A DNA stretch of 59,758 nucleotides, counting the filler, from Sluysia triapertura (taxonomy: Eukaryota): NCBI GenBank assembly GCA_046118255.1. It is 5 parts of 5 records of this genome, joined end to end, with 100 filler letters (N's around TTAATTAATTAA, not from the genome) between each part and the next. Parts side by side here need not be neighbours in the genome. Positions count along the whole stretch, not along the records: positions 37,716 to 48,593 come from JBJNIA010192151.1; 4 more parts are not named here. The stretch is one strand, 5' to 3'. The notes under the pieces are model-generated. The model had not been told where the DNA came from, made no database searches, and worked only from the letters and a program-made list of their open reading frames with translations. Positions 8,257 through 54,520 of this stretch are shown here, piece after piece. Numbering within the stretch: position 1 is the stretch's first letter; every line of letters begins with the position of its first letter. A program made the translations under genes and the position numbers.

Positions 8257-8960
8257 TGTGGTAGCCAACCTTATATCACTTAAAATTACAATACATCACA
8301 TTACACTAAAAATAACAATTTTACAACATCTAAGCCATCCATTCCATCGAAAATCATTAAAACTGTAATTTAAATTTAAACATGATAATAATTTAAATGG
8401 AATTTCTTTTAACACTTCTAACGTCACCAACAATTTCTCTTTTCTCCATTTTATTAGTATTCTTACTTTTCGCATTTTATGAAATGTTATTTTTATTTCA
8501 ACGCGTAAATTTTCTTAATCAATTCGTAACACAGATTTCAAATTTAACAACTTCAAGTTAACTACCTTAACAGAATACAATTGTTTAAAAACTCCTAAAT
8601 GCATTGAAAAATTCACGTAATCAGCAACTTTAAGAAACGCACTTATTTAATAAGATTTAAGAAATAAATAAGCAAGAATCTCAAATACATGAATAGACCA
8701 CACATTCACAAATTCGACAAAAAACATAATTTTATTTAAGAAAAGACAATGAATTGTAGAGAAATTTATGCAATTATTTCATTTTAGAACTACCTTTCCT
8801 CCAACAAACATTTTATTCCTTAGTTCAACAATACCGTCCTATGTTTAAGAATCTTTAAGATTATTTTTAAAAGAAATTTCTAAAGAAAAGAAGAATATTT
8901 AAAAAGAATATTCAATATTTAAAAATTGAATATTTATGCGTTTCAATTTATTTTTATTCA

Positions 8961-9012
<52 letters not shown>

Positions 9013-9050
9013 TATATTAGTATATTTATTTTATTTTATTATTAATTACA
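8257..9050 (+). mobile_element. LTR-like repeat, copy 1 of the TGTRGTRGYCAACC family
   Basis: Starts TGTGGTAGCCAACC; AC-rich body; TTTATGCGTTT at 8933-8943; (ATT)n at 8964-9012; ends ...ATTACA. The same start or motif recurs at 11646, 41586/40701 and 46265 on the - strand. Confidence 0.6.
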
Positions 9051-9059: not shown

Positions 9060-9700
9060 ATTACCATTGCAACTATTAATTGAAATTGAAGATAATGTGT
9101 TTAATTTAATGAAACGAATAGAATCACTAGAATCTGAAAATTCTTTAGCAAATTATAATTTATTTACAACTGAAAATTCAAATGAGACTCCAAATAAAAT
9201 TCATGATGACAAAGAAAAGCTGGCGTAAATATTTGGAGAAGAAGCAAACAATAAATGAGGAACGAATTGAAGAAATGAATGCATTAATTATAATTATTTG
9301 TGAATCAACTGATATAATTTCAGCTAGTCATGATGAAACCTTTATATTAAATCATCAAGTGTTTTACAAAATAGCTATAAAAACGCGTACATCATATCTG
9401 TATCTCATTTCAAATTATCTCAAAAAATTATAGTGATTTTATCTATCAAATATTTCGTATCCATAAAATTATCATCAAAGATTTCCATCATATTCCATAT
9501 GATAAATTCGCAACACGTTCTTCAAATGCACAAGACTAACTGAATGTTCATGAATACAATAAAGATGTTAAACATAATTACAATCTACGCCATTACAAAA
9601 CCGCACAATGTATGTACCGTACGAAAAATTTAAGCCTATGTCTTAGATATGGTCAACATTGCTAATATGCCCATAGTGTTTCAGAATTGCGTCATTCCTC
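9060..9700 (+). pseudogene. Element-internal ORF remnant ending in a CCCH zinc finger
   Basis: 9591-9695 translates HYKTAQCMYRTKNLSLCLRYGQHC*YAHSVSELRH, a TIS11/ZFP36-like YKTxxC...CxYAHxxxELR finger with an internal stop. Confidence 0.65.
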
Positions 9701-10298
9701 CTGCGATAACAACGATTCCGATGCTAACCTTGATCATTATTATATATTATCTTCCTTGCAAGCAAAATCAATCACATAAAACTCTTCAATTAACAACTGC
9801 ATGAGTCTTATTAATCACAGTGACCATGACTTAGGATATTTTTTTAATGACTTAATTTTTTAACACATTGTAGCCCTTAATCGTAGAACTTTTACCTCCA
9901 CTGCTCTAATATGCTTTAGTAATTTTGTCATTACCCCCAAAAACTTCATGTTTTGGTTAATTTTTCCCTATTTCGCGATCACAGTTTTCAAGGATTGAAC
10001 CGCTTTTTATACTATAGCTGCATAAACAGTACAATCGACTATACTGCTACAACTTGAAATCGGAAATAACTGACTAAAACTAAATCTTAAATTGCATGCA
10101 GCGGACATCAGAATATTTATAACCGTTTTCTAAGATTAAAGCAAGACTAAAGTACTTAATCATAAACTATTCTGATTTCTGCAGTTTATAAGTGCCTTAT
10201 ACAGTTATACAACATTAATATAATGTTCTTTTTCAAGTTGAATGTTTGGTGATAGTAAATACTTCATAAAACATTTTTCATTTTTAAAATTAAAATTA

Positions 10299-11485: not shown

Positions 11486-11646
11486 GATGTTTATGTTTGA
11501 AAGATGTTGTTGTGAGTATTGTTGTTTTATGTGATGAATTGTGTGGTGATTGTAGTTGCGGATTATGGTTGTGATGAATTTTACTTTAATGAAATTGTTT
11601 TAATGAAATTACATTTTAAACTTAAATTAATGGGTTGGCCACTACA
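11486..11646 (-). mobile_element. 5' end of LTR-like repeat (same family), truncated by the gap
   Basis: Minus strand starts TGTAGTGGCCAACCC and continues AC-rich. Confidence 0.55.

Positions 11647-13323: not shown

Positions 13324-13367
<44 letters not shown>
13324..13367. repeat. (AAT)n microsatellite
   Basis: About 14-15 AAT units. Confidence 0.95.
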
Positions 13368-13368
<1 letters not shown>

Positions 13369-15379: not shown

Positions 15380-20786
<5,407 letters not shown>

Positions 20787-23459: not shown

Positions 23460-23460
23460 T

Positions 23461-23905: not shown

Positions 23906-24369
23906 TTTTAAAATAAATATCCGACAATAATAATAATTTTCCAATAGATAATAAATAGTCAATAATGAAAATGTTTATAAAATATCAATAATAAATTTCC
24001 GATAATTATATCAATATCCGTAGTTATAATCGTTCATTAAAATATTCGCAAATAATTATAAAATAAATGTCCGTTTTTAATAATTAACTACTAAAATAAA
24101 CTTTTTAAAACTTTCAGTAATAAATGATTTATAAATATCCGTTTTGATTACTACTAAAGATAATAAACTTTTAAACGTAAATAAATAATTACTTCCTTTT
24201 AATCATGAAATTGTAATAAAATTATAAATATTTTCAAACATATAATTTCCGATTTTCAATACTGGTAAATAATTATTTATAAACATCCTATTAAATTTAC
24301 AAACTAAAATTTATAAACATCCTTTAATTTATTTATCTAATTAGATTTTAATTATTATTATTTTAAAGA

Positions 24370-24590
24370 TTTTCACAAAAATTATTATTTTACTTTTTTA
24401 CAAAAATTACAAAATTATTACAAAATTTACACAAAAATTATTTACAATTACTGATTTATAGATACAAAAATTATTATTTATAATTACAGATTATTATTTT
24501 ACCACAAATTATTTAATTACAAATTTACAAAAATTCACAAATTATTTAATTACAAATTTATTATTTTACCACAAATTATTATTTACAATG
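24370..24590. repeat. Degenerate AT-rich tandem repeat
   Basis: Repeated ACAAA(A)TTATT(A)TTT(A)AC-like units. Confidence 0.6.
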
Positions 24591-27500
24591 CTAATGATAT
24601 AACTAAAAATATTTAACTGGATTAAAGAAATGGTATAAGCTTTATTAGGATAAGTTATAGCACAAACGGACTCTATTTTTAATAATTCAGTACTTTCTGC
24701 ATGCAATTAAGTCAAAACGGTCTTATTTATGATAATTTAACAAAATAAAATTAGTGAAAATGAATTATATTGTCTTATTTTTTAATTTTCTCGTAAATAA
24801 AACTTTTATTTCCAAAATCGAATATTTTTCCTCAAATAACTTTCAAAACAATTTTAAAAATTAATAAATTAACGTAGTTTTAGAAGTACAATCAAAATAT
24901 AATGTAATAAAACAAACATTATTAAAACAACCAGAAATTAGACCTAATAAATAATATAGAAATTATAAGTTATGGATTCGTCTGGAGTATGCAGTTTACA
25001 ATTCACTTGCAGAATAACGTAAACTTAATTATCATTAGAAATGTTTTTCTTTTGAGGGTCTATAATATTTTATGCTATTTATTACACAAATATGTTTGCT
25101 TATTATCGTAATATAACAATTTGGCAAGGATAATTAGTATGCAAATATAAGCGTTTGTATTTTCTGATAGTTTCGTAAAGTACAATTATAATTACTTAAC
25201 CTTGATCTTGATATAAGGTAATAACTAATAACAATCTAATAACGTAAAAACAATCTGTTTGATAAACATTTAACAATTAGATCAAAATATCAACGATATA
25301 TCTGATTGGACTAATTTTAATAACGATTTTTCTGCCTGAAATTTCCTTAAAACATTAAACTCTTTTCAAAAAGTAACGAGTAATTATTTGTAAAGAAAAT
25401 AAATCAATAAAAATTAATTTCGTTGATTTGATGAATTTATTTCAGCATTTTTGTAGTTTTGTATTATGTTTAATAATATTTGTAATAATTATTATGTATT
25501 TATATTTATTATCATAATATATTACTATTGTTATTATAAAATTTTTTCATTATTATTTGTTAAAATCCTTTAATTCATCATTATTAATATTATTATTATT
25601 ATTACTTGTAACCAAACTAAGAAATACTATCTTGGCTTGGCTAAAATGATAGACAGTTATATTTGTTTACAAACTCTTTTAATGATTAAATTGAGTGTTC
25701 ATTTTTAATCTACATAGCAAAGAAGAAATTACTTATTTAAATGGCTTATTTAAAGTATGGAGATAATCATCTTGTATATTGAAAAATATAACATTATCTT
25801 TACAATTTATAATTTATTTATTTATTTTGAATTAATTTTACAATACTATCAGAATTTAACATTTGTTTTTTAATAAACAAATTTGTTTCACATGTAAATT
25901 AAACAATTTTGAAAATAATTTATTTTTTTAAACTAAAAATTTGTTTTTTGCACATTATGTTAAAAATCAAAATAAAAGAAAATAAGTAAATAAATCGCTT
26001 ATATAAACTTCAAACAAATCACTGCTAAAAACATATGTTATAACCTCTGTAATTTATATTTGCCTTTTCGCATTTTACCACAATAAATGTTAACAAAAAT
26101 TTTTCTTATTTTAATTTATAAAATGTAAAAGTACAATTATAAAAATTGTAATGATAAATATAAAATGTAGGATAACTGAAAATTATTTTATTTTTGGTAA
26201 TATTATAATGTATAATATTAAATAATTCGCCTTTTATTGACACTAATTTAAACAAAAGTATATCTTATTATTAAATTAATATTTTATAAATATATTAACA
26301 ACAATAAAAACAAATCAAGAAATTAATATATGATTTTATTGGGCTTCAACGCAGTTAAATCAGTTTTATTAAAAAAAATATAATCATTTTAACAATAATA
26401 ACTTTTTAATAATCATTTTTAATAATAACTTTTTATTGAAGCATTAAAACAAAACTGTGCAACACGTATTCCTCAAAAAAAAACATTTTCCTTTGTAAAT
26501 GAACACAAATTTTCTGTTTCAAATGAATCGTTCTTTCAGAATATATTTTATATGTAATTTAAATAAAATGTTGAATAATTTAATTAATTAATAAGAAATT
26601 AATTTGTAATATGTTGTACAAAAATAGGTACTTTAATTTCTAAATATTCATTAACTAATTGAACTGAAGGCTTATATTATATTAAATTCCACAAATCTTG
26701 TAGTTTCCAACAGAATCATTTTCATATTTTTATTATTATTAATTATTTTTATTATTAATTAATTTAATATTATTAATTTTTTTCTACGTTTTTTTTGGTC
26801 TCATAATTAAATATTATACTTTACTTTGAAAAAAATAAATTATATTAGCAAAGAAAATTTTTTATATAAAGTAAAAAACCATAAAATATTGATGTTTCTG
26901 TTGGGATTTATATACATTTTCCTAAAATATTAAATTAAAATAAAATTCTTAATATAAGACGTAACTTCTTGAACAAATTGTTGAGGCATTTTCATATTTT
27001 TCTTTCTTCATATTTTCATTTCTTTGCATAGATATTCTTGTATGTAGTGTGATTTATATAAATTTTCCTAAAATATCAAATTAAAATAAAATAAAATTCA
27101 TACTTTTTTAATTTATAGAAAAAATTGTGTGTAAGGAAAGGTGTAAATTTTTAATCAATAAAAATATAAATGTACCACCAAAACGTGCACATTAGAATGT
27201 CTTTGTGCTATATAGTCATTGGTGGGTTATTTTTGTAAGTGACCTTTATTTAAAATAACCACTAATGAGAGGACATTAAATTGAAATTTTTAAACAAATA
27301 TTTAAACCAGATTTTTATACTATTTTTTTAATTTTAATTTTTATATAAAATTTAGTGTAATACGGCAGTGTTAAAATCTATGTAGTAATTAATAAGAAGT
27401 TAAATGAGTAGTTAATTCATTTATTAACATTTGATACTTTCTTAGCTTTATATTTACACATTTTAACAATACAATGAATGTTCCTTTAGGAATTATTACT

Positions 27501-35431: not shown

Positions 35432-36664
35432 CTAACCACACCAATTACGAAACATTTCTTCGAGAAAAACTTCAATGAAAGTTATCTGAGATTTTGGTAT
35501 ATCGCATGTTTGTCGATTGAAATGTGGCATCACCACAAGAAGACCTTTCGCTATCTCTTCATCTGTCTGTGCAAAATATTCTTCCGTAATTCGTTTTGCC
35601 CATTCAATGCATAATCCAAACGGTCGAGTGGGATTATTGACATCGCTACATTTGACAAGCATTCGTCGTATAATACATTTATTTTCTGGAATTCTCAAAT
35701 TCAATGGTTCGTCACTAGGAATATCTTGAAAATTTCGATCTGTTACTCGCATTATATTATGCAAAAATTTTGTCAAATGTTCAAGATGTTTAGCCATTTC
35801 TGTAGCTAAAACTGCATCAATTATACTATGACGTAATGATGTATAGTCATCTCGGTTTAAATTTTTAAAAATATTTATTCTATCGTCCTTCAAAGTAAGC
35901 TTGAAAGCAAATGAAGAATGATGGTTTTCAAGAACAGCTATATCATTGTACATAACAGCTAAGTTATGACTACTGTTAATAAGAAATGGATTAGTTTTAT
36001 CGGCCACACTTGGGTAAGCAATTACATCTTTAACACCTTCTGTAACACGACTCATTTCAATATATATTTCTTCTTTGGTTTTATTCTTTGGTATTCCACC
36101 AACAAATAGACGACAGTTGTCAACACTTAAACAAACACCTAATGGTTTTTCTGGACGTATTTCATAATTATTTAATTCTGCTACAGCACGTTTGGTATCT
36201 TCTCGATTCATATAAATGCAAAATCCATAACCTCGATTTGTGCCTGTAAAATCCATCATTAAACGAAACATATAAATTGGACCGATTTTTTCAAACACCG
36301 GTACTAATTCATCTTCGAAACAATCCCGTGGTATTTTACCAATAAATACCTCACAGCCACGTTGAGGTGAATCACCGCACCATTCAGGCGGTGGTCCGTA
36401 TCGTCTTTGACCATTCTCTTGTACTATTGGATACATTGTACGGTTTAATAACTTAACTAATGCTTCTGCTGATGACATAACAGCAGCATTTTGGTTATCT
36501 TGCTTACATAAACTATCGTTCTGTTCACTATCATTCTTCATTTTATCACCTTGAGCATTACTATTACTGCTATTAATTACTTTATTAGTGTTACATGGAA
36601 CAGATGAAATCAATGGCAAATTTTGATACAAAGACACACACGAATTATTCACTTGTTTTGACAT
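35432..36664 (-). CDS. Chimeric ORF: RBM47/RBM46/A1CF-type RRM1 plus half RRM2 fused to the C-terminal half of a PDE8-type phosphodiesterase catalytic domain
   Basis: [58 protein letters not shown], then [63 protein letters not shown] probable GT donor lies at the 3' end (TGTG|GTTAGT). Confidence 0.9.
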
Positions 36665-37545
36665 TTCGTACTAATTTATTTTAAAATTATAATTTTCAAT
36701 TTCTGTAAACATACAATCAAAAAGTATAAATGCGAAATGTTCTTTTTATTTAATGTAATTTCAATTTGATTTGACTCAAATATAAGTTTAATTCTATAGA
36801 TAAAAATAATTAATTCATAATATAAATGATACAAATATTACTCTTAGGTTTTGGGTCCAAAGTTTACTAGATGTGACAATTTCAAAATTGAATATTGACC
36901 TAGTATATCGATCTTTTATTATGTAATATTTTTTATTTAATTATACTTAATTAATTCGCTATAGCAATGAATAAATTAATGAAAATAATATATTTTTGTT
37001 ACGAAAAAATAGAAAAGAATAACTTAATATTATTTTAAAAACCCTTAATTAATTTATTTAAATATGTGTAATGCTAAACGAAATTAGAAAATTATTTTAT
37101 TTTATGTTTATTTTATCTTTGCATCATAACACTTTTACAGTGTGAAACTTCAGTCTTAAAATTAATTGAACTAAGAATGAAAATTTTAAATTAATTTTAT
37201 TCTTTTCATTAATTTTAAAAATAAATCATTTTAATTAATTGTTATTCTAATTAAAAATAATTTAATACTAAGTTCTATTTGTGTATAGTTTTAAGATTTT
37301 ACGTTTTATCCTTAAATTATTACATGTTGCTTTTGTTAGACTGACTTAAAAGAATTTATAAACTCGATATCCCAACAAAAGTCCTAATTATATGTATAAC
37401 TTAATTTAATTTTTAATTTCTTACAACTTTAAATAGAAAATGCTTCAGTAATAATGTTAAACTTAAATTATATAAATTATTTCATTTTCAGTTCACTTAA
37501 TTTCACTTTTATTAAATCATTTGTTAGGATGTTATTCCTTAATGA

Positions 37546-37715: not shown

Positions 37716-38017
37716 TCTAATTATTCTAAATGAAATCATAACTTTATTAAAATTTCTATGTTCAATTTTAAAGATAAAATGATTAAAATAAGGTCTATGA
37801 CATGTATTATACATAAAACTCATTAATTTAATAAAAATTTGCTTTATCAAATACAATTTATGTAGTAACAAATGTTGATGCATCTTTGAACATATTACGA
37901 CCGATGCACTAGGAATATAAGTAAAGATATGAACACACCAAAAAGTAAAATTCATAATGATCAAAATGCAAGAGTAAATATAAAAAATAATAATGTAACT
38001 TCAAATGTATCTTTTTA

Positions 38018-38780
38018 TCAATGCGTTGTGTAAGGCAGTGAGGTACGGAAAGATACTTGCACTAAACAGATGTTTGCAGAAGTTGTGGTTCGAAGCGGTT
38101 CTCTGAATAAGCATGTTGAAATTACGTATATAGATTGATCGGGTAGAAGTAATGATAAGAGTTTATATGATGTACCGTCAATATTCGATATTAGAAGATG
38201 TGACGAGGTTATAAAAGCACATACTAATTTTGATTCATTAATCATAGTCGAAGATTCTTTTATAAATATTACAGCACTAATAATACTATTATCTTCTTGT
38301 TCGTTTACGTCATATCTATAATTATTTGTTCGAGGTAATTGACATTTACTTAGAAGCATTTTACCTCTGATATCATTTATTGCATTTGATCTTCGAAGAT
38401 TATTATCTACATCTTTTCTTAATTCAATCAAAAAAAGTAAACGGTTCTTTAATTCATAACTAACTAATTCATTAGCTGTACTTAACATATGCTTCGTTTT
38501 TTTACATCGATTGAATTATATTCGAGCTAAAATGATCTTTTGAATGTTTTCGTTACTAATACATTGTTCTATCTGATTAATAAGGTTTGACATTAAGTTT
38601 ATTATAATATTTAGTCTAAATTCGATAATGGTCAAATGCCTTTGTAATTATAACTTTTTAAAATGTGATTTCGTAGTTATTTTTTTAATAATGATTTGTA
38701 ACAAAGCCACTAAATTAATTTTCGATCATTATTTAAAATGGTATCCAATATTGATTAATAAAATTCAACTCTAAATTTAG
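38018..38780 (-). pseudogene. Orphan ORF remnant, paralogous to 44187-46070
   Basis: Shared colinear blocks: FRLNIIINLMSNLI vs FRL/MIIIKAVMSRLI; NDIRG...CQLP vs SEIRG...YCLP; INESKLVC vs LNGSKLIC. Confidence 0.5.
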
Positions 38781-39899
38781 TAACATATTCTTTATAAATT
38801 CGTTTGATAGGAAAAGAGGATGTTGCAAAAATGTTTATTTTTCTTAAAATATTTAATTGTGAATTAGTTAATTGAACAGTGAGCCATTATTTGTTGTCAG
38901 CCATTCAGATTGAGTAAATCAAATAATGAATTGAGTAAAATTCACCAAAAGAATTGTGATAATAAAATGAATTAAATTTACATTTAATTCTAATAAATAA
39001 TAATACAAAATTTTGATTAGGAGTCTGTCAGTTGTTAAATTGAAAACCAATGATTTAATAATAGTGACACTAACAAATAACAATAACGTTAGTAAAAATA
39101 ATAATTAATAATATTAATAATAATAAAATAAAATATTAGTAATAATAATAATAATTTGGTTGTGATCGATCTCTTTAATTTGTAATTTCTTATTAAAATA
39201 AAATTTATTTAGATTCTTTTATACAAATTCTTTTATAACGTTACTTTTAAAATTCTTATTACGTTTCGTAATTAAAATTTTATGAGAAGAAAATAAAACG
39301 AGTTTAAGAAATATAATTTTATTATACATTAATATAACAAAGACTTTTAATTTTGACATTTTTTTCGTATGCTTGTCATGAAGTCTTGTCTGTGATTGTA
39401 CGTCTAAATTAAAATAAAAAAATGAATTATAAGTCGAATGAACAAAAATAATATTACATTGTGGAGCAGGATCTCTTTACGTCACGTTGTGCTTAGGACT
39501 GTTGGTTTCTTTTGGATCCATTGAAGTTCAGTTAGATTATGAACTTTATCTTGATTATACGATTTACAAATAACTGTAACTATAGCTATCGAATTAAGAA
39601 ATTCTAACTTTAACGAACATGCCGGGATGGATTCCCCTTTAATGATAATCTTTACAAGTATTTGCCGATGATTGGTATTTTGAATGAGTACTAAGACAAC
39701 ATTTTGAAGGACATGAACCAACTTTAATCACTGCCATCATAGCATTAATCAGACAAGAATGTAAGTCCGGCCTATCTTTACTTTGTCGTAAAATCGAAAC
39801 ACGTAGTAAATTAAGATTATCATTAGTTGTAGATCTATGGTAGGAATCATCTGAAGTATTTGTAGATTCAAAATCTAAAATTGGTAATTGAAAAATTGA

Positions 39900-40200
39900 C
39901 AGTGATCGAAGTCGATTATGTAATGACATGGATGCTGCTTGATCACCTGTATTTATTGATACAATATCAATAAACAAAATATCAATATCAAGACCACATA
40001 ATTCACTTCCCAAACTATCTTCTGTAAATAACATCAAATCTCCTTTATATAATTTCGTGAGTGCTAAAGTTGAATATCACCTTAAACATACTTTAATAAG
40101 CCAGTCCATTGCTTTAGCAATATTGTAAATTGGTGTTCACATTACGACATCGTGATATTTTACTTTAATATTAGTAATAGTTCCATTATCTTTAGTTGTA
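39900..40200 (-). mobile_element. Penelope-like reverse transcriptase fragment (decayed)
   Basis: TPIYNIAKAMDWLIK ... LCGLDIDILFIDI resembles the PLE pattern PTYxLAKxLxxLL ... SLDVxSLFTNV. Confidence 0.5.
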
Positions 40201-40609
40201 GTTATAAGTAAAATTTCTTCCTTTACTAAATGAAGAAACATTGCAAATCATCATCAGAACAAATACTTCCTTTAACATCGTTACAAGTAGACTGTAATTT
40301 TTCACACATTTTGTTCAGCGCGAGATACTTCAACTTTTAACAATTTTTTATGAGTACTGTTATATTTAGTATTGTGATTATAGCATAAGAAGTTTTGTTT
40401 TAAAAATTTTTTCATATAAGCATTCTCTGATTAGTCGTCCAGTCAGAAAGAGTAAAAATTGATAATTTGTATAACACTGATTGGACGACTAATATTAAAA
40501 ATTCAAAACCGAAAATAGAACTTTTGAGTGATGAGCCACCATCAGTGCTGACATGAATTTATATACAGTAATCAGCAATGTCAGCACTGGCGATGGTAGA
40601 TACTAATTT

Positions 40610-41586
40610 TGATATTGTGTAAAATTAATGAAGTTTAATATTAATAATAATAACAATAATGTTATTATTATTATTAATATTAATTAAATACAAGATATTT
40701 AAAACGCATAAAGTCTTTCTGAACGTTACTCGACCTGTCTTTTATTTTATTCATCTTTCTCGAAATATTTTTAATCTAGAATTAAAATGGTAGAATTGAG
40801 TCTAATCCCAACAATAACAAGAGAGACAATGTTGTCATTATTGTTGTTATTAAACTGCATGAAATCTTGAATTCTTTAAAAATTGTACATGATCTTACTT
40901 TAAATCCTTTAAGATTTCTTAACATATTTACATATATTTAAATATATTTAAAACTAAAGATCTTTAAGTGAATGTTGGTTTAGTTAGTTTTACATATATA
41001 ATTGATGTTTCAAGATACGATGGCAGTTCTAATGCTATGCAGTAAATGTAGAACATTTGAATGAATTTTTTGATGGTGATTAATGTTTTTGACTGAAAGT
41101 AATATTTGAATATTGGAAGATTGTGACCTAAAGAAAAGTTGCGAAGAGTGTGGTTTAGTGAATGTGAAAAAGATAAATTACAGTCCGACTCTTAGTATGT
41201 TCGAAAGGTGATTGTACAATGTTGATAATGTGATTTGATCTCTTGCTATTTTTAAGTGGTATTGTCTTTTGTGCTGTTAGGGATTATACGATAACAAATG
41301 ATGAATTTAAAATGTAGGAATTGATTCGAAGGTGTCAGGTGGATACTTTCGAATGTGGTTGTAGTTTGATTGTTATGAATATCGAGTAAAATATTTTTTG
41401 ATGAATCTGTTAATATAAATTGATGGCATTGGATGTCGTTCTGGTTTATATGTTATGAGATTGTGGATATAAATTGACTTTGGCAGATGAACTGTTTTAG
41501 TGAATGTAGAGAAGGTAAATATGTGAATGTTGAAATGTTAAAGGATTTTTAATAAAATTTAATAATAGTGAAGGTTGACCACCACA
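40610..41586 (-). mobile_element. LTR-like repeat, same family
   Basis: Minus strand starts TGTGGTGGTCAACC; AC-rich; TTTATGCGTTTT at 40712-40701; AAT/ATT tract; followed by a PBS-like hairpin at 40538-40605. Confidence 0.65.
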
Positions 41587-43002
41587 TTATTATTATCATT
41601 GTTATTGTTGCCATCGTTACTATCATTGTTGTTACTATGAATGTTATGCATGTAATTTTATGTCTATTTGATCTGATTAAAAACATCGAAAGTCGTGTTA
41701 TTAAAAAATAGATAATTATTAAAAATAAAATTCAAAATTATTGACAAAACAAATAATATTATCATTAAAAGAGGAAATAAAAAGATAGTTGTGTCTACTC
41801 TTGTATACAAACTTTAATTACATAGTATTCAATCTGAGCGTTGAGCCTCAGCAACACAATACCTGTGTCTGACCTAATATGCCATGCCTGTCTTACAATA
41901 GATTCAAACTCTACATCTTCCGTGGTTTTAATACGTCTGTTGCATTCAGATTCCCATTTGAAGTCTGTCTTCATCGAATCGATCCCAATTAGCTCTTGCA
42001 GCATAACTTTTGTCAACATTCGAATTATGACTTCTGAAATGTGACTCGAATATAACTATGAATCTAATAATGAACAAAGCACTATTTTACATGTTGCCCC
42101 AATACGAGTGTCTTCTACTCTGACTAATTGCTAAATAAACTGCAGAAAAATGATCGTATCTTCTTTTAATCGTTAACAAATTCAAATTATAACTAAATAT
42201 AAGTAAATATAAAATAGAATGTTATATCATAATCAAAAGAAATATTATGTTGATTTCAAATTGTTTTATAATTGTACAATCTTTGTAGCAAGGTTTAATT
42301 TTTTACTGCCGTTTTAGTCTGTTTAAACAATTTAATTTTTTCTTTATTGCTAATTCTTTAAATTTAATTCTCAAACTTTTCATTTCTTTAATTTCTTGAC
42401 TTTGAAAACATATATAAAATGCAACATATATATGAAATATAACATAATGGAACATAATAAAATATGGGAAAAGTGTGGTCGAATAACAATGATACGATGT
42501 AAGTGAGTGTTGTTTTATTGTATTATTGAAGTATTATTGACTTTAAATTTAATTTTAATAGATGATTTTTTGCTTTTTGTTGTGATATATGTTGTGAATT
42601 ATGATTTTTAACTTTCGAATTTAAAAAATTTTAACATTTTTTAGTTTTATTTTTACGTTAAAATTAAAATTTAAATATTCTTTATTAAATTTAATTAATT
42701 CACAATCTCTTTTAACATTAATTGAATAAGAGAAACAATTAATATCTATTATATTTAAATTTAAGAATTTATTAACCATTTATTTTGAAATTCGTTTCTT
42801 GCAAATCATTTCCTTGACATGTTTGGAAAGCAAACTTTCCACGTTTCTAAAATATATTAAAGAATAATAAAACGCAATTATAAAACATAAATACGGTTAG
42901 AATAAGAAACCGTAATTACTTTTAAATTTTGAGAACTGTTATCGTTGAAAGGACTTTCGTTCAATGATGAAATCAGTTGTTGTATTCTTTAATTGTGATT
43001 TG

Positions 43003-43200
43003 TTAAGTGTGACATCCAGGTACATTGTGTACATACAGGCAATTCCTACCATACACTGTGCATTTTCCATGTAGAGTCGCAACATATAGACAACAACCAG
43101 ACTTGATGCGTCGTGACTCATCACCCAGATCTGATCGTATCTTTTGAGTTTCGGCAGTATAAGCAGCAGTTTGGATGATATCTTCTTTTAAGGACCATTG
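43003..43200 (-). pseudogene. Element ORF fragment with CCCH zinc finger
   Basis: RIKSGCCLYVATLHGKCTVYGRNCLYVH has the C-x9-C-x6-C-x3-H spacing also seen at 9591-9695. Confidence 0.55.
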
Positions 43201-43214
43201 TTCAATGAGTATAA

Positions 43215-44088
43215 TACCAGTGACTGGAAACTTTGGAGGCTTCCAATTTTTTATTTCCGGTCTTCCAATTATTTCCAATTATTTCCGGTCTTCCTAATAA
43301 TTTAAACGCTTCAAATTGATATATTTGCAATCGATCATGTTGAATTCGTTTTTTAATTTCCAACATAATGAAGTCATCTTGTAAATTCTTTAATGTCACA
43401 TTTGAATCACGTTTATTCAATAAATAACGCATTATAAATAAGTCATTATTACTTAACTTAACATGTTTGAGAATAATTTTTACTTCTTTTTTATTTTCAA
43501 TAATTAATCGTAAAAAATAGCACTTCGAACATCATTTTTCTGCAATTTTTGATAAAACTCACAAAATCGTTTTTCCTCAGTTTCAAAATAATCTTTTCCT
43601 AAACCAACGTAAGGAAATAAATTTACTTCAAACTTTCGCTTCAATATATCACGTGCATGTCTACCTTTAATAACTTTACTCACTTCTGCCCAAACACGTT
43701 CACCAGTAATAATTTTTACACCATCGACTTTTTGTTTAATATTAGATGAAGTTCCTTCAACTTGTGAATCGGATTGTTCCGGAATTCTTTCAAAATATCT
43801 AAAATATCGTAAAATTCTTAAATAATCTTCTTGAATTCGATTAACACTGTTTCAAACAAAACGGATAATATTACTTTCTAAATCTTTAGTGCCACCAAAT
43901 TGATCATAAATAAAATCATCTTCATCTAAAATTAAAGAGTTAATAATTAAATCACGTCTTTCGACATCTATTTTCCAATCTTTTGTAAATTAAACTTGTG
44001 CTCTGTGGCCATAGGTTGCAACATCAACTCGTAGAGTAGTCATTTCAAAATTTTCATTATCATCAATTCTTGGGCTTATTGTAGCGTG
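43215..44088 (-). pseudogene. TRNT1: CCA tRNA nucleotidyltransferase fragment, intronless, disrupted
   Basis: [51 protein letters not shown]...YDQFGG...RIQEDYLRILRYFRY...ITGERVWAE...WKPPKFPVTG. Contains a stop and frameshifts, and lacks the N-terminal catalytic DxD motif. Confidence 0.9.
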
Positions 44089-44186
44089 TGATGCAACAAT
44101 TGACATACAATCTATTAATTCTGTACGAGCTTTCAATCTAAGCTCCATGTCTTCTTTACTGTTAATTGCCATGAGACATTTTTAAC

Positions 44187-46070
44187 TTAAATATCGGTAA
44201 AGTAAATTTTATTATAATAAAAAACTAATTTTGGGGGTGGTATGTTATGTGACCAATTTTTTTGTGTTGTATAATGTAACGTTTGATAATTAGTATTAGC
44301 TAAATTATTTTGAGGATTTGACAACAATTGAAATCTTTGTATTGTACCGTCAGTATTTAGACAAGGACAAGATGATTCGCCTTCAGATGTTATTAATGTC
44401 AGACAAAAACGTAAGATTATACAAGATATATATGGCAATGTAAATAACGTCGAAATAGGTGAATTACAATGGTGTAGATCAATTGGTGATGTGATAAACT
44501 TTGTCTGTTCGTGGTGATCTTGATATTTTAATATTTCATACATTATTATGTATATTTCTAGGATAAACTTGTGATTAATTATAGAATTCTTATTTTTATT
44601 AATTGAATGAATAAGACTTGTTTCGTTATTAGAAAAATTAGTAAAAAATTGTTTAAGGGCCTTAGTACATTTTAAACAATTTATATCATTTTTAAAATTA
44701 ATTTTACTAATAATACGAAATTGAAAAAAACTATCAATTTTAGAATTTATTATACTTATTAATAAAGATGTTATTAAGATGTTATTTACAAAAACATCTT
44801 CTTGGACACAATTAAATCTGACTGGAACCCAGTTAGCAGGATCTGAACATATTTTTATCCTAATGAAATTATAACAGAATAAATTCATAAATTCATAATC
44901 TGAATGTTTATTAAATAGTTTCAAATAAAGCAATACGTAATTACCTTCGTGTAAGGTGAATATACATTGGACAAAACTGACGTTGGAATTCTTAATGATT
45001 ACCACGACCAAGCAAATTAACTTAGATCCATTCAATGTATCATTATACACATTGTCTCTGTCACTAGTACATGAACTATGCTCTAAATTACTGAGAAGTA
45101 AATCAAAGTGGCCGTCTAATTTAGGATGAAATACATTAGGTAAACAGTATATAACTTTCATAAATGAACATTCTCTAGCACCACGAATTTCACTTACACT
45201 CATTTATGTTTGAGAAAGGAATAAAACTCTTTTGGATGGTATTGTTAGATATTGCAAAGAATTTTTGCTGAATTTGATTGAATCTGTGTCGATACAGTAT
45301 GTATGATTGACGAATAATTTGTGGATAGAACGTTAAATAGTAGACTTTGATTAATCATGGGATTGACTTTTATTTTATCTAATTCATTAGTAAGTCTGGA
45401 ACGTGTTAATTCATTATTGTCATAGGATAATTCTTGCCTTACTGATATACGTGTTAAATCGTAATGCCCATGTTTGAAAACGTTACATGAATTGGTACGA
45501 AAATAAATGGTTTCATCGAATTGATACAAACTTATACTAATATGGCTTTCTTTCACAACATTAACTAAGATTTCCAATATGTGCATGAACTCATAATTGA
45601 ATGATGATGTCTTCTTGTGAACATTGAAAACATAAGATTGCAAAAGATCATTTAGTGGACAATTCTTTCTAATGCTCATAACACTTTCACTAAAAATATC
45701 ATTAATAACTTTTTGTAAATTTGCTGCCATTAAATTTTGAAGCTGTGATTCTTTTATATCATCAAAAGTTCCATGTAACCAGTTAACAATAAAATTTCCT
45801 GAAATAAAATTTGCATAATGTATAAGTCGTGACATAACTGCTTTAATAATGATCATCAATTAGTCTAAAAATTGTATAATCACTCTGTAAAGTTTTTAAT
45901 CTGCATTGAAATTGATCATAAAAGTTTTTTAACTCAGTTGATAAAATTGTGAATTTTTGAAGCCAATATTAGAACATCCAATCAGATCGGTGCTTAATGA
46001 CACAAATTGTGATGATTCTGATTGGATATATTGATCATAGTAAAGTTAGTGGGATGTTGGTGAGAAACAG
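44187..46070 (-). pseudogene. Long orphan ORF (~600 aa) broken by frameshifts, just downstream of the LTR-like end
   Basis: ORFs 45245-45859 and 44187-45203 plus coding-like sequence up to ~46070; intronless; paralogue at 38018-38780. Confidence 0.55.
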
Positions 46071-46157
46071 CAAAACATCTGCCGTCATCAGTAATGTCAT
46101 TGTAGTGACAGTTCTAATCAGTGCAAATAGTACTGATGACGGCGGTAACCAAATTAA

Positions 46158-46720
46158 TGTAGATGATTATTATTAATTTGGTTAATGATAAAAATAATAA
46201 TAAAAATGATAATAATAACACTACTAATAACAATAATAGTATTGTTATTATTATTGTTGTTAGTAAAAACGCATAAATGTCTTGAGCCTGATAACAAGAT
46301 CTTTCTTTTTTATTCTTTAGTCTTCTTACATATTAACAATGAAATAAAATGAAAAAAAACAAATGTACTGTGAAGGAGCAACAAAGATTAAGTGAAAGAA
46401 GTATCATTTGTGGTTGTTGCTTCACAGTATGATAATGAATCTCTTTAAAGTTATCTGAATTTTATTTTGAAATTATGTAATGATTAAAGTTACAGTTGAA
46501 ATGAAGAATGTTAGAATAATTTGTTGAAGCTTGTTAAAAGGTTTACAGTTTGAAAACAAGATTTATACATTAGATTTGAGTTTAAATACTTGTTAAAGGT
46601 TAAGGTTATTTTAATCTTTAAAATGATTGCAAATTAAATTTAGATATATTATAACGTCAATGTAGATGATTGAGAATAATGGATATTGTTGTGTGGAATG
46701 AGTTTAGAACGGTGTTGGTG
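46158..46720 (-). mobile_element. 3' part of LTR-like repeat
   Basis: TTTATGCGTTTTT (46277-46265), AAT/ATT tract, ends CTACA (46162-46158), then TTAATT and TGGTTACCGCCGTC. Confidence 0.6.
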
Positions 46721-46728
46721 ATTGTGAT

Positions 46729-48593
46729 TTATATTTCTGGGGTAGTTATTAACGTTATTTGAATGTTATTGTATTTGGATTTTTGCCCATTTATTTTAAA
46801 ACTATTTATAGACCAGTTAGGTTGTATATAACGCTCCTGAGTAAGTTGAGGTTTAGTAGATCCGTTTTTAGTATTTGAATGATAATAACTTACATTGTTA
46901 ACTGGTCTTGGAGGTATGGGTGAGGTAGTGGTAAACCCATAACCCAAAATTTTATTATTTTTAGGTGTTATAGTTGTCCAGGCAAAAGATGTAGTATTTG
47001 ATTTAAATGAATTTTGAATTTTACTATTATGATAGAGTTTATTGTTTATTTTAGTAGGTGGAGTTGATGTTGTATAATTTGTCTATTGTTTAGTGGTGTT
47101 ATTATGTGTATAAATATTCATTGCTTGATTAAACTTTTGTGGGTGTTCATGATTATGGGATGTATTAATGGGATAATGTGATGTTTTATGTTTGAAGAAT
47201 TGTTTATCTTTTGTATTGTGTAATGAAGTTTGTAATGTGTTTTGTTTTGTTTGTTTCGAGTTATTTTTGTAAAGATGTTTTGAAGATCTGGTGTGATTGT
47301 GAAAATTAATTACATGGTTTTGTTTATTGTTTATGTTAGATAATAGAAATTGTATTGTAATATCTTTTGTTGGTTTAGGGTTGTGATTTATTGTATGTGT
47401 ATCATTTTTTGTATTACGTGGTTGTTTTGATGAATGTGCAGTCTTGTTGTGTAGTATTTCTTGTGTTGGATGCTTGTTGTTTATTTCGGATAGTGTAGAT
47501 GTTTTATTTATGGGTTGAATGATGGTGTTATTGTTTGGACTGATGTTATTATTGTTTTTGTTTTCATAAGGTGCTTGATTTATGGTGGATTTATTGATGT
47601 TACTTAAGTGTATATGGTTCTCTTGTATTTTCTTTAGTTTCTTCTTTGTTTACTCAGTTTTGACTTATGTAAAAGAATAACGTATAAAAATTTATTTTGT
47701 AATCGGAGAATGACATGCTTATTCTTTAATTTTATAGGGCGATCTATATTTATGTTATTAAAATTGTTATAAGTTTCAATAAAATAATTAATGTTATACA
47801 CTTTAAGGAATTCATTACCTTGAATATTTGAATATGAAAGTTCTTTAACGGTCTCATCACTGGAGGCATAAAGAATACTGTTGAAATTATTATCATCATA
47901 TTTATGCGTATATCTTTCAGTGATGAGATCGTCATAATGACAAAAATTTTTTGATAAAACATACATAAACAAACAAACTTGGATCCATGAAACGTGGCGA
48001 CACAGATTTAAGAATGATAATGTTTTGCGATATAATTTATTATTAGTTGGTTGAGTACAGGATGATACGTACTTGGTCTTCAAAGATAGAGGATTAAAAC
48101 ATAAGTCTATGTTTAAGATGTGTATCAAAGTTGAGGGCGTAATATTAGTTTCAATAAAATAATAAGTATCAAATAGAAATTTAAAGAGTGAAAGTATATA
48201 TGAAGAATCGACCTTGCAGTTGTAAGGCTTGATTCTTGATATTTTAACAGTTAATATATTGTTTTCTTGACTTATAATATTATTCGAAATTAATATTGAA
48301 TTTTTATTTAATTTACAACAATAGAGATGATTGTTAATATAATAATTCAAGTTTACTGGATCTTTCAACTTAATGATTTTCAAGTATTTATTACTTAAGG
48401 TTTCAATATTAATCTTAAAGTTAGTTTTATTTACTAAAAATCTAATATTCGTATAAAATTCAATTAAACAACAATTGTGAAAATTTATTACATTTAACAA
48501 AATCTTATTCAAATTAAAAAGTTTATGAAGGTTTTTCCATCTGGCCGACCAACGTTTCGATGTCCAATCTGTAATTGACCTAACTAAAGAATA
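46729..48593 (-). pseudogene. Long orphan ORF with N/T/H/K-rich C-terminal half, interrupted, 5'-truncated by the gap
   Basis: ORF 47634-48512 is open to the contig end and continues through two frameshifts and one stop into ORF 46729-46947. Confidence 0.5.
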
Positions 48594-48693: not shown

Positions 48694-48708
48694 GAGAGGG
48701 GGGTTGTA

Positions 48709-48753
<45 letters not shown>

Positions 48754-48760
48754 ACTATAT
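48694..48760 (+). mobile_element. Polypurine tract plus TG LTR start, then (TA)n
   Basis: GAGAGGGGGG-T-TGTAGG followed by a (TA)20 tract at 48711-48750. Confidence 0.45.
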
Positions 48761-49086
48761 AAGTCAATATAGACTATATAAGTTAATAATTAATAGACAA
48801 ATTAGTAAAGGAATAGATAAGGAAAAATTTAAAATAATTTTAGCGTATGTCATATACCAATGTAATAAAAAGTGGCTGATTACAAAAAAACAGAATAGAT
48901 AAAGTTATAGATTTTGTTAATAAGAAAACTAGATTATGGGCAGAAGAACAAGCAGGTTGGAGAAATATAATAAAAGGAAAAGAAATCAGAAAGCAGAAGA
49001 GCCGATTAATTTAATTACGCAACTATTCGGCAATAATGACAACATTAAATACAGCCATACAAAGAATAAGGAACTCGTCAAATAAT

Positions 49087-50900
49087 ATGTTATTTATTAT
49101 AACATTACTAGCTATCTTTGATATGAATAAGACTAATGGAATAAAAGCATTTGATTGGAGAGCTGCAAAATTTTCTTTATTGGTCACAGAAGATTTACCT
49201 GAGTCAAGGCCAAGTCGAATACAAATAAAAGATACCAAAGTAATGAATGTTTACCAAGAGGGAAATTTAGTGACAACTTTAATGGGAAAATGTATGGTAA
49301 AACGATTAATTGCAATTTGGTATTGTGACTACCACAGCTAATCGTCTATAATAGAATTATCTAATGTACTCAAGCCATTTAAAATATTATCTAAACAATG
49401 TAGGAATAACAGATATTTAGTTTAAACAAAGGGGATAAGCTAAAAATATGTAATAACGAAAAAATAATTTACATTAGAACCGCAGGTAAGGTATTAATAG
49501 ACAGAACTTGCGTACAGAAAACAAAAGGAAAATTTACCATAATGTTATCGCACAAGAAACATTTGTAGTAAGTCTACAATCGCTTAATGAGAGTTTCGAA
49601 ATGGAAAATGGCACAATGATGTCACAATCACATTGTAAAAGCGATCAAACTATTTGTGACACAAGAAAATCGATATTAATTTATGAGCTGGACAAATTTC
49701 ACTGTCCACTGATATTTTTAAAGAAACAATTTAATGTGGTAGCCGGATTCATATATCAAGATAAAGATGAATATTCAATACAGGAAATAAGCAAAAATTA
49801 GTTAAGCAGAGAGAATATTGATAATATGCAAAGAAAAAGATTAGATGAAGTTGAAACACCAACAATATTAATGGCAAGAAGAGAGGAAGATGACTTAATT
49901 TTTATCTCAAAAGGAACAATAATTCTTTGCGAAAAGGAAATAACGGAAACAAACCATCAAGGAACCTATTTGTCTGAAAAAACAGTACAACAAGCTGAAA
50001 AATGAGTAGACGCAAAAAATGTAAAATTAAACACCTATTTTAACAATAAAATTGATTTTTACTACCATCTAGGTTTAATATCATTAGAAAAGATTTATCA
50101 AATTATGGTTACCTGTGATTGTCAAATAAATAAAGAAATTACGGACAAAATTAGCAGTAGTTATTACAAACCCGGATTTAGTTGCATCATTACTTCCATT
50201 AGATGAAAGAGTTTTTGGCCGACTAATTGGAGAGGTATTATATATTTACAAGAGTAAAAAAAGTAGAAGTGCAATTAAGGTCAAATACTGAATGTACAAA
50301 TGAATTACCTATATTATATAGTAAAATGGAAATAAATTTAGAACCGATAGCTAGAGTAATTTTTCCGAACAGCAAAGTTAAACCACAACTAATACATTGT
50401 TCTAATGCACCAGAATACAGAATAGATGGATATCGTTACCACATATGAGTCAAGTGAAAACTCCAGAAATTATAGGACTAAACGAATTAAAAGGAAAATT
50501 GAAATTTCTAGCTACAAAAAATAACCAAATTCCGGTATTTACAAAAATGATGACATTCAAGCGAATTGGCGGAAGATATTATTCCCAATAAAAGGATCAA
50601 AAAAGTTAGCAGAAATTGTACACAAGGCAAATGTTGAAAAGAACGGACAAGTGATTTCGAATTTCTATTAGGACCTGATCACTTTAAAAGAGCCGCACAA
50701 TATACACTTAAACATTAATATTAGGTCAGCGTTTTCTGCATTATTAGGAATCTATATAATAATTAAAGTAATTGCGCCGATAATTTCTCAAGCATTATCG
50801 GTAATTGGAATTTATAAAATTTCATTGTTTACATGGAAACTAATAATCGGATGTTTTCCATTTTTAGCGAAACATCTCTTGATTCATCATGAAAATGTGC
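49087..50900 (+). pseudogene. Chuvirus (Jingchuvirales)-type class III fusion glycoprotein, disrupted
   Basis: Signal peptide MLFIITLLAIF, then IKAFDW, KCMVKRLIAIWYCDYHS, TYFNNKIDFYY, LEKIYQIMVTCDCQINKEI, NPDLVASLL, GRLIGEVLYI, VEVQLRSNTECTNELPI, LEPIARVI, and a C-terminal TM region FSALLGIYIIIKVIAPIISQALSVIGIY. These follow chuvirus G motif order as I recall it. Several stops and frameshifts. Confidence 0.75.
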
Positions 50901-51099
50901 AAATAAATGCATTATGAAAGGAGAGACAACGGACAGGAGAAAAACAACAAATAGAAAATATAACTCTACAATCATTACAAAATAATGATAATGAAAAAAT
51001 TATTGAAAATCAAATAAATAGAGAGAGCCAGAAGAAAGGAATGTATCCTATCACTCCAACGTCACCACCGCAAGTTGTGCGAAAAACAATTGAAACAGC

Positions 51100-51471
51100 T
51101 CGAAAAGCCCGATGGTAAATATCAGAATAAATGGCAGAATGGTCTCAGTATTAATAGATACAGGAGTGAAGGCGTCTCTGATTAACGAAAATTTCTTAAC
51201 TAAAGCAGAAATAAAAAACCTTGTCAACCACACATCTCATATATCAGGAGTTACAGATGATGCAATTAATGTAATCGGTGTAATGAAAGCTACATTTGAA
51301 GTAGGACAAAATAAGTTAGAAATTAAATTAAGAGTCATGAAAAAATGTCCTAAGGAAATGATAATGGGAATGAATATATTGTCACAATTAAAAGTAATTA
51401 CATTAGATTTTGATCAAGTAAAGATAGTCGATCAAAAAGAACTATTGATGATGATGATGATGTATATGTAG
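51100..51471 (+). mobile_element. Retroviral-type aspartic protease
   Basis: VNIRINGRMVSVLIDTGVKASLI ... MIMGMNIL (DTG active site, ILG.D-like motif). Confidence 0.9.
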
Positions 51472-51799
51472 AAGAACCACTTTAGTTATTAAAAAGAAGT
51501 GAATATTTAATGCCAGATAAAACCAATAGTCTACTGACTGGCAGCATTATGTTTATTGCATCAGAGATTAATCAAGAAAAGTGGGTTATAGGAATAGCGA
51601 TTGCAATATGTAATAATTATGAAGTAATAATTATGTCCGCATTATAAATTATACAAACGATAACACATGGCTTTATACCGGTACTAAGTTAGGAAAAATC
51701 TTCAAGTATAAGATAACTGCACATATAATATTATAATGGAAGATAAAAATAAGACAGGAAACAAAAATAAGATTTATATAAAATTACAGCGTGAAATAC

Positions 51800-52455
51800 A
51801 ATATGAAGATTACGGAGAAATCGAAATAACCAATAAAAATCTAAAGAAAAAACAAATAGATCAGTTATATAATGTTATTTATCCTTATCCAAGAGCAGTA
51901 GCTAAAACAAATAGACATTGGAGATTCAGTAATAATTAAACGCGAAATACCATTAAAAATAGACAAAGTGATTTGTAAAAATCCATATAGAATACACGTA
52001 TGTAATCAAAAGGAAATGCAAGATCAAATAGATACTATGAAAAAGGCCGAAGTGATAAGGCCAAGTTTCTCTCCATTTTTATCTCCAGTTTTATTAGTCA
52101 AAAAGAAAGACGGCACAATCAGATTTTGGATAGATTTTAGGGAATTAAATAAAATAACAAGAAAAGATACATTCCCTTTACCAAGAATAGACGAACTGAT
52201 AGATAAGTTAGGAAACGCCATACATTTTATAACTCTTGATTTACTTATTGGCAGATAGAAATTGCATTCGTATTTCGTATTATCAGGATGTAAAAATGTT
52301 ATGGTGTTAATTGATGATATAATATTTTCTAAGGACTTTGACACACGTAAAGGATATTGACTATATTTTAAATAGATTAGAAATAGCTAGTTTGAAAATC
52401 AAACCTACCAAGTGTGTTTGGGCTGAGAAAGTCGAATTTTAGGAATACATTGTAT
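51800..52455 (+). mobile_element. Ty3/gypsy reverse transcriptase, internally deleted pseudogene
   Basis: PYRI...VIRPSFSPFLSPVLLVKKKDGTIRFWIDFRELNKIT.KDTFPLPRIDELIDKL...FITLDL. The PFGL block is missing; then VMVLIDDII and LKIKPTKC. No RNase H or integrase follows. Confidence 0.92.
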
Positions 52456-53291: not shown

Positions 53292-54520
53292 GTTAGGTTG
53301 TCATCACAACTCTCTAAAATCATTAAATTTCATTAAAAAATCATTTATCACTTATCTCATCGATTTTTCGGAAATAGTTAATGTCACTATGTTTATCAAG
53401 AATTTTAAATTATTAGAGAAATTGTTCACTATGTTAATGACATTAGTAATAATTGTACAAACATTCGTATGAGTATTATTAGACGTGTCAGTGATATCAC
53501 AACTCGTGAATCGTATAATATTTGCACAGAACTTATGCCTAAAGTATCCAAGCGTGATTCAACAGAATTTTATTTATCCAAAAATAAAATCGAAGTTAAT
53601 TCTAATAAAATTAAATTTACAGATTGCTCATAGTTTCAAGATCAAGACATAACGGCGTGGAATTCGCGAGTTTTTCTTTTGTTGAGTCTTTATGTAACTT
53701 AAATTTTCATTTTTATTTAGATGATGACTCCAGGGTGAAGCCAAATGATGTACGTGGAGATATAGCAATAAAATTTAAACTTTTTGTTCTAATACGAAAT
53801 ACAAAAATTATAGTTGCTAACGTCTTGATAATTTATTTCTTTGATTTGATCATCATCAAACTACGCAAAAGTTTTAAACATATTATTTATAACGAAATTA
53901 GACTCAATAATACAAATAAAGTTTATATAAATTTTGATTTCAAGATTAAAAGATCTATTAATCAACTAAAATTTTCTAAGCTAAATTCAATAGTTTATAT
54001 ACAAACATTGTTAAATTGGTATCATTTAAAGATAACCTTTCAAATATTACTAGATCGGCGTCAGATAACCTAAAACCCCTAAAATTATTAATATAATTAT
54101 TATTAATATTATTATTATTATTATCATTATTATTAACACCTTTTAACGAAACTTTAATAACTTTCAATTATTCAAAATAATATATTTACGTACTTTTCCT
54201 TCTGGGTATGTATGTTTGTGTATGTAATATTCAATAAGCACAGAAAGTGATCAATAAAATCATCTTGAGATCATCTCCTACATTCTACTTCAAGATTTCC
54301 GACGTTTTTCAGCACTTCATAATTTTCTTTCGTATATCTGGAATAAGCCAACTGCTAAAGTAACGTACAGAAGGATTGCTAAATTAATCTTGAAATCTAT
54401 TAGTGATGCACTGTTTAAAGACTAAATAAAGTGTATAATAAAGTACAACAAATTCATTACACAACATTTTAGTGAAACAATCAAATTATCTGTTAGTTTG
54501 TCATCACAACCCTCTAAAAT
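53292..54520 (+). repeat. Pair of ~30-bp direct repeats 1.2 kb apart
   Basis: GTTAGGTTGTCATCACAACTCTCTAAAATC (53292) vs GTTAGTTTGTCATCACAACCCTCTAAAATC (54492). Confidence 0.7.

Follow-up and report, generated by a model that had tools for sequence, protein, structure and literature searches.

What kind of element could have produced the alternation of repeats and intronless open reading frames (ORFs) on one contig of the Sluysia triapertura genome (JBJNIA010192151.1, assembly GCA_046118255.1)? The window, i.e. the whole stretch of DNA analysed (59,758 nucleotides), is composed of five contigs of ~11-14 kb each from this AT-rich genome, with N spacers between them, and the chain of repeats studied here is the fourth contig (10.9 kb). 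An intron-containing DEAD-box helicase gene in the window and the animal-type best matches of a fragment of the CCA-adding enzyme (TRNT1) indicate that the host is an animal.

Along one strand of the fourth contig runs a chain made up of a highly repeated unit of ~1 kb, a pair of conserved hairpins and multi-copy ORFs that have decayed. The repeat lineage, with its orphan and captured cargo known here as decayed fragments, is real and probably undescribed. The explanation that we prefer, to which we assign a probability of roughly 0.55, is that the contig carries co-oriented remnants of an old, non-autonomous and cargo-capturing lineage of Ty3/gypsy-type long terminal repeat (LTR) elements, in which variable cargo replaces gag-pol. 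No published description of such an element was found in a search that left out most subscription journals and repeat databases, and the family could already stand in supplementary repeat libraries or in Repbase. An initial annotation, made from the sequence alone, had proposed a giant or non-autonomous LTR family with novel accessory proteins. Its motif sites, A/C skew, ATT tracts, repeat status and non-random ORFs are borne out, but the consistency of its module and the homology of its ORFs are not. What stands of its interpretation is a repeated TG-starting unit and orphan multi-copy coding sequence; the ORF homology is not supported, and a site like a primer-binding site (PBS) follows one of the three units.

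Repeat units and hairpins

The unit is represented by copy A on a separate contig and by copies B and C on the fourth contig (Table 1). The module had been described as starting with TGTRGTRGYCAACC (8257+, 11646-, 41586-) and as containing TTTATGCGTTT (8933+, 40712-, 46277-), and both motifs do occur at these sites. In 60 third-order Markov simulations of the window, TGTRGTRGYCAACC was never generated and TTTATGCGTTT appeared 0.1 times on average, with a maximum of one per window, for motifs that were both defined post hoc from the same copies that were tested. The unit bodies show the A/C skew reported earlier (G makes up 5-9% of each unit), and an ATT tract follows TTTATGCGTTT in A, B and C, as claimed. 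In two of the three units, B and C, AATAAA is positioned ~35 nt ahead of TTTATGCGTTT. The module as a whole recurs less regularly than described: both motifs are present in A and B (two of four copies), but C has no TG start and the copy at 11646 is cut off.

Compared with shuffled sequences, the likeness of the units to each other is weak overall. The A-B score is reached by none of 200 shuffles and the A-C score by 2, but the B-C score is reached by 16. The A-B similarity is colinear from the first base onward (0/200 shuffles), and BLASTn joins these two units solely through a piece of 80 nt, the ATT tract included. The alignment of the 11646 copy is no better than chance (59, 35 and 8 of 200 shuffles reach its score against A, B and C, respectively).

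The genome-wide evidence for repetition comes from the contigs of one public sequencing run, possibly of the source sample and not independent support, of which the short contigs only were compared with the window. The summed depth of related contigs reaches thousands at the units, against a baseline of 10-15 for contigs with an exact match to the window, which is a sign of repetition and not a copy number; the units are true repeats, as had been proposed. Bins holding ATT tracts, which inflate the depth, were not relied on. The summed depth of unit B is 7,005-24,543 over 41064-41573 and 1,291-5,014 over 40809-41063, with 93-256 outside the unit (41625-41850), and that of unit C is 14,276-42,480 over 46428-47153, with 412 beyond the unit (45702-46064). 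By this measure, the ORFs that follow the units are far less abundant than the units themselves.

At the TG start of B the depth falls from 7,005 in 41523-41573 to 177 in 41625-41675, and because of this sharp fall the TG motif at 41586 is taken to be a true repeat edge. A TG-starting boundary of the kind that LTR elements have is therefore found for B; the motif is also present in A and in the 11646 copy, and absent from C. Behind unit C the depth drops from 3,033 at 46164 to 324 at 46064. In B the repeat extends ~165 nt past the proposed CA end (2,332-3,593 over 40452-40604, then 116-469) and runs on through the hairpins, which blurs the 3' boundary of the unit.

Two hairpins, H1 and H2, recur behind B and C at equal spacing. 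A consensus fold of the B and C hairpins contains 25 pairs, none of which is broken and 6 of which are changed on both sides, a covariation that comes from two sequences and is insufficient to prove an RNA structure. The stems could instead be DNA palindromes. As the stem motif of H2 (CCAATCAG) presumably resembles a CCAAT box, H2 could be a palindromic binding site at the DNA level rather than an RNA hairpin. A search of Rfam gave no matches at E<=1, hammerheads included, and the hairpin pattern had no matches in metagenomes. The H2 stem motif also has an isolated copy at 25302-25310 of the window.

Could the unit have come from a non-LTR or Penelope-like retroelement, as a 3' end whose tail is (ATT)n, with an unrelated flank behind it? 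AATAAA is followed by the ATT tract, one of the ORFs of the contig (ORF U, see below) ends inside unit C, and the depth within this unit declines toward the 5' end (42,480, 14,276 and 1,920), as 5' truncation would give. However, B has a sharp TG start in common with A, and the sequence behind the tract is both conserved between B and C and repeated. Penelope-like elements carry a hammerhead ribozyme in their pseudo-LTR (pLTR) and a reverse transcriptase (RT)/GIY-YIG protein, whereas the search of Rfam was negative and no domain match was found. This origin of the unit is very unlikely.

Table 1. Features of the repeat chain and related features elsewhere in the window; depth is summed contig depth, a sign of repetition
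Feature	Position	Strand	Remarks
LTR-like unit A	8257..9050	+	Separate contig; motifs, A-B alignment; without H1/H2
LTR-like unit B	40615..41586	-	TGTGGTGGTCAACC start, AATAAA, TTTATGCGTTT 40702-40712, ATT tract 40636-40684; sharp depth edge at start
LTR-like unit C	46158..47250	-	Approximate 5' edge, no TG motif; AATAAA, TTTATGCGTTT 46267-46277, ATT tract 46183-46255
Further unit start	11486..11646	-	Motif present; cut by contig end after 161 nt
Unit D	39090..39520	-	Different, lower-copy repeat with ATT tract; related to ~53680-53960(+); depth 137-281
Hairpin H1 of unit B	40538..40596	-	z -3.9, 0/200 shuffles; depth 2,696-3,593
Hairpin H2 of unit B	40430..40493	-	z -6.0, 0/200 shuffles; depth 2,332 over 40452-40502
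Hairpin H1 of unit C	46081..46143	-	13-bp perfect stem; z -3.5, 1/200 shuffles
Hairpin H2 of unit C	45974..46029	-	CCAATCAG stem; z -2.7, 4/200 shuffles
ORF U, first part (U1)	47637..48593	-	319 codons, open at contig end; depth 836-4,145
ORF U, second part	46732..47649	-	306 codons, one stop, N/H/T/K-rich; final ~500 nt within high-copy sequence
Decayed orphan ORF C	44187..46050 (start approximate)	-	Open pieces 45248-45859, 44190-45203; depth 283-830
Decayed orphan ORF B	39642..40400	-	Open piece 39642-40076; Cys/His cluster at end; no significant Pfam match
Decayed orphan ORF D	38018..38790	-	Open piece 38021-38515; depth 249-601, diverged contigs
TRNT1 fragment	43207..44088	-	Intronless, 5'-truncated, with stops; protein alignment; depth 1,487-2,979
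CCCH finger behind TRNT1 fragment	43021..43113	-	C-x9-C-x6-C-x3-H; pairwise E 4e-5 to finger after unit A
Unkempt-type CCCH finger	9573..9707	+	In decayed ORF after unit A; PF25427 E 4.9e-11; PDB 5elh E 2.1e-7

The relationship of unit D to ~53680-53960(+) is reached by none of 200 shuffles (z 6.8; tblastx E 4e-6). This second copy of the unit-D repeat, at 53615-54135 (+), contains an open frame of 152 codons as well as an ATT tract. Elsewhere in the window, a MITE-like inverted repeat of 38 nt at 95% is found at 10286-10450.

Hallmarks of LTR elements

The membership of the unit among LTR elements is unproven, and the following observations weigh against the LTR lineage that we prefer. 1) The CA end and PBS-like site, annotated as regular parts of the module, are not consistent: CA closely followed by TGG just past the tract occurs in one of the three units, C. 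2) No target-site duplication (TSD) was found at a plausible end for any of the three starts, the one 4-mer match lying within unit B. 3) No G-rich purine tract (PPT) precedes any of the three TG starts, an absence that would be expected if the starts belong to 5' or solo copies. 4) The window contains no paired LTR copies, since no two units are near-identical. 5) No linked pol was found: RT, integrase and gag gave no match when minus-strand frames and short ORFs were scanned. 6) Unit C is without the TG start motif, and the unit bodies of B and C are not significantly alike. 7) Unit A is without the hairpins (fold z +1.3), and the extension of B through its hairpins has a depth like that of B's own 3' half. 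8) ORF U1 shows no codon-position bias. The limits given above for the summed depth, the ATT tracts and the two-sequence covariation of the hairpins belong to the same side. No tRNA was found in the window for comparison with the PBS-like site, and self-priming complementarity of at least 8 nt is absent from B and C and represented by one 8-mer in A.

Non-autonomous LTR elements of the LARD and TRIM types keep the LTR and structured cis-signals without enzymes, and their inside is usually non-coding. The inside of the element described here is, in contrast, coding, and it differs between units.

The lack of a TSD, a PPT and a consistent PBS would also suit a tyrosine-recombinase (YR) retrotransposon of the PAT/Ngaro type, of which the units would be split direct repeats and the zinc-finger ORFs gag. 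Split direct repeats are known from such elements and the Pat1 gag has a zinc finger, as stated in an excerpt of PMC4157794. However, no YR, RT or methyltransferase (MT) domain was found in the frames scanned, the A1-B1-A2-B2 layout needs identical repeat pairs, none of which was seen, and the finger matches that of the host protein Unkempt. We give this explanation a slim chance.

Orphan ORFs and host-derived cargo

The ORFs of the fourth contig are all encoded by the minus strand, and each of them follows a repeat unit; they have no introns, and stops or shifts of frame interrupt them. None of 1000 shuffles yields a stop-free frame for any of five open ORF pieces: the ORFs are non-random, decayed coding sequence. 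The ORF annotated at 46729-48593 as running into the LTR-like segment does end at 46732, ~500 nt inside high-depth sequence (the depth is 5,919 at 47250 and 703 at 47473), but it is not a single open frame: the ~620 codons of ORF U are spread over two overlapping frames, interrupted once by a frame break and once by a stop. The region 46732-47649 contains this one stop, against a minimum of 5 in 2000 shuffles. The regions 44187-46070 and 38018-38780 (ORFs C and D), which had been read as single long ORFs homologous to each other, are frameshifted and stop-broken instead, and their homology is not supported (z 0.8; 346 and 1445 of 2000 shuffles reach the score; no tblastx match). The codon bias of C, B and D is host-like, with low third-position GC as in host genes. 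As ORFs B, C and D have a depth of 116-830 and the matching contigs are ~10-20% diverged, these ORFs are multi-copy.

A similarity between the ORF after unit A and ORF U (z 4.3, the highest among 28 pairs) was rejected because its frame differs from that of the CCCH finger, and a borderline similarity of D to U (9/2000 and 17/1000 shuffles, among 6 pairs) is not claimed. Two further regions upstream of units have no Pfam match: an 86-codon open frame immediately upstream of unit B (41798-42055, minus strand) and a decayed coding-like region upstream of unit A (4990-6650, plus strand).

Searches for relatives of the orphan ORFs were negative or weak. No homologue of U1 was found (no Pfam match; none of 1633 candidates at E<=1; best Atlas score 0.76). 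The second piece of ORF C has no homologue in Pfam, protein, viral-contig or PDB searches. When ORF C was compared with 1.84 billion proteins, the single match was a repeat protein that is not related to it, and none of 8 candidates from viral contigs is a relative. Sequence searches of the PDB with the pieces of ORF C and with D gave nothing below E 1.9, and PHROGs gave nothing below E 0.08. Single-sequence AlphaFold models were uninformative, with predicted local distance difference test (pLDDT) values of 35, for the AF2 model of U1, and 33, and Foldseek gave nothing at E<=0.001. A weak lead connects ORF C with cap methyltransferases (CMTR/FtsJ; Atlas 0.78). The test set for these enzymes comprised 237 loci, 236 of which have the motif. 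Against a profile of 79 sequences from 118 viral loci, the best domain of ORF C scored 5.3 bits (top scores of shuffled sequences, 3.7-11.4) and hhalign gave a weak match at E 0.012; against a broader profile, made from 98 non-redundant of 146 long-enough sequences, hhalign gave E 0.2. Pairwise comparison with six of nine animal-like cap-methyltransferase sequences gave nothing significant. Judged by eye, ORF C may have some likeness to CMTR2.

The accessory proteins had been annotated as novel, but two pieces of the cargo are host-derived. The TRNT1 fragment is 52% identical to residues 119-291 of a 458-residue animal protein (E 3e-54), in an alignment that is uninterrupted across 173 codons, and its best matches are a mollusc and insects, at ~52%. 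Residues 1-118, which we take to hold the catalytic motif, are missing. The fragment is intronless, truncated and stop-bearing, as a processed (retro) copy would be, and it is amplified to ~100-200 times the exact-match depth. Directly behind it is a CCCH finger, whose match to Pfam zf-CCCH_UNK (E 0.038) is below the cut-off, and a diverged contig spans the junction of the fragment and the finger (43017-43293). This finger aligns at E 4e-5 with the one after unit A, so that at least one protein module is common to units on different contigs. This is not the module named in the initial annotation, the pair of ORFs C and D. The finger has the C-x9-C-x6-C-x3-H pattern of Unkempt (PF25427; PDB 5elh, E 2e-7). 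Unkempt carries an array of several CCCH fingers, whereas a single clear finger in an orphan, decayed ORF is seen here.

Orphan ORFs with a host-like codon bias, a modest depth and no demonstrable homology among themselves might be expected from an expanded lineage-specific host gene family, or from decayed segmental duplications among which short repeats had come to lie by chance. Yet every ORF follows a same-strand repeat unit, the TRNT1-finger chimera is present in a second, diverged copy, and all of the ORFs are broken and lack introns, unlike the intron-containing host DDX5 gene of the window. It is very unlikely that host genes or duplications account for the chain. The DDX5-like gene, at 16737-20760 (-), is 67% identical to its best match and apparently ends in a repeat-rich exon at 15380-16780. 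At 35432-36670 (-), an RRM region (E 3e-17) and a cyclic-nucleotide phosphodiesterase domain (E 3e-49) are fused in one uninterrupted frame of 412 codons, which has the appearance of either a chimeric retrocopy or a misassembly.

On the next contig, a decayed gypsy element is found at 48694-52400 (+), starting with a purine tract and TGTA. It encodes a fusion glycoprotein of the Monjiviricetes type (PF24664, E 1e-13), followed by an aspartyl protease (E 9e-11); RT-like motifs are seen in translated frames, and one piece has no Pfam match. The order of env before protease is that described for planarian Burro in an excerpt of PMC6431247.

Burro (GYPSM1), a giant Ty3/gypsy element of planarians, resembles the present case in its AT-rich animal genome, its accessory ORFs and its acquired cellular domains. 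It differs, according to the same excerpt (PMC6431247), in its typical gag, which has CCHC knuckles, and its single polyprotein of ~5,000 residues. The element here has no gag or pol match, short cargo ORFs and a CCCH finger, and no size above 11 kb is shown, whereas elements of the Burro type should exceed 20-30 kb; an autonomous set of the Burro type (CCHC gag, env, PR-RT-RH-IN, i.e. protease, RT, RNase H and integrase) had no match in the frames scanned. The fourth contig might nevertheless derive from the interior of a single giant composite element, a Burro-like provirus or similar, present in tens of copies, with an LTR-derived promoter cassette heading each accessory gene. All of the modules are co-oriented, no bin of the contig-wide depth scan is below 137 as compared with 10-15 for exact-match contigs, and the gypsy element of the next contig has the Burro order (PMC6431247, in excerpt). 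Against this, the summed depth spans a ~100-fold range along the contig, the Burro domains gag, CCHC, MATH, BIR, BCL2 and ankyrin have no match, no contig links the modules to pol, and the host is not identified as a planarian. A single giant element is thus unlikely.

Two other known systems can be compared with the cargo-capturing LTR lineage that we prefer. LTR-mediated retrocopies, as described in part of Tan et al. (PMC5131818), include multi-gene chimeras and are comparable with the mRNA-derived, truncated and intronless TRNT1 fragment between element sequences. The chimera here differs from those described there by being amplified and by having a carrier without recognisable gag-pol. 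LTR elements of bdelloids with a captured ORF3 (PMC5408684) and plant Ogre (PMC6431247) also have variable extra ORFs; in the excerpts of these two papers they keep gag and pol, and their env, GDSL and DEDDy ORFs were not found here.

Possible origin of the chain and its implications

By combining the features of the units, hairpins and ORFs, it is possible to suggest how the chain might have formed; we infer the LTR role, the leader signal, the enzymes in trans, the template switching and the origin of the chain. The unit would serve as an LTR, providing a promoter and, in B and C, a poly(A) signal ~35 nt before TTTATGCGTTT. H1 and H2 would be a packaging or dimerisation signal of the leader. 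Autonomous gypsy elements would supply the enzymes in trans, for example the fusion-protein/protease/RT element of the next contig, a possible donor that is not physically linked to the units. The cargo, i.e. the TRNT1 fragment and the Unkempt-type finger, would be gained by template switching onto co-packaged mRNA and would then be amplified together with the element. LTR elements are described as forming chimeras with mRNAs through template switching (PMC5131818, in part) and as carrying diverse extra ORFs (excerpts of PMC5408684 and PMC6431247). ORFs with a CCCH finger at their end may take the place of gag's RNA-binding part. Recombination or tandem insertion at the units would give rise to the co-oriented chain, and unit C would thus close one element, containing ORF U, which overlaps it, and open the next, containing ORF C.

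A much broader and improbable extension of this scheme is a widespread lineage of animal retroelements, in which orphan proteins with a captured Unkempt-type CCCH finger replace a recognisable gag and bind RNA, and in which the two-hairpin leader is kept across highly diverged subfamilies. Such a lineage would be a vehicle, present in high copy, for capturing, fusing and amplifying host genes of RNA metabolism, namely the fragment of the CCA-adding enzyme and, possibly, a dead cap-methyltransferase fold in ORF C.

If the LTR lineage with variable cargo is the correct explanation, cargo-carrying LTR elements, represented by Burro, Ogre and the bdelloid elements with ORF3, would be extended to a lineage without recognisable gag. 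The unit together with its two hairpins would then be a defined cis-module with a testable role in packaging and mRNA capture. The decayed ORFs of such elements could inflate gene annotations, and in invertebrate genomes rich in repeats the elements themselves could be a source of chimeric retrogenes and of genes that appear to be orphans.

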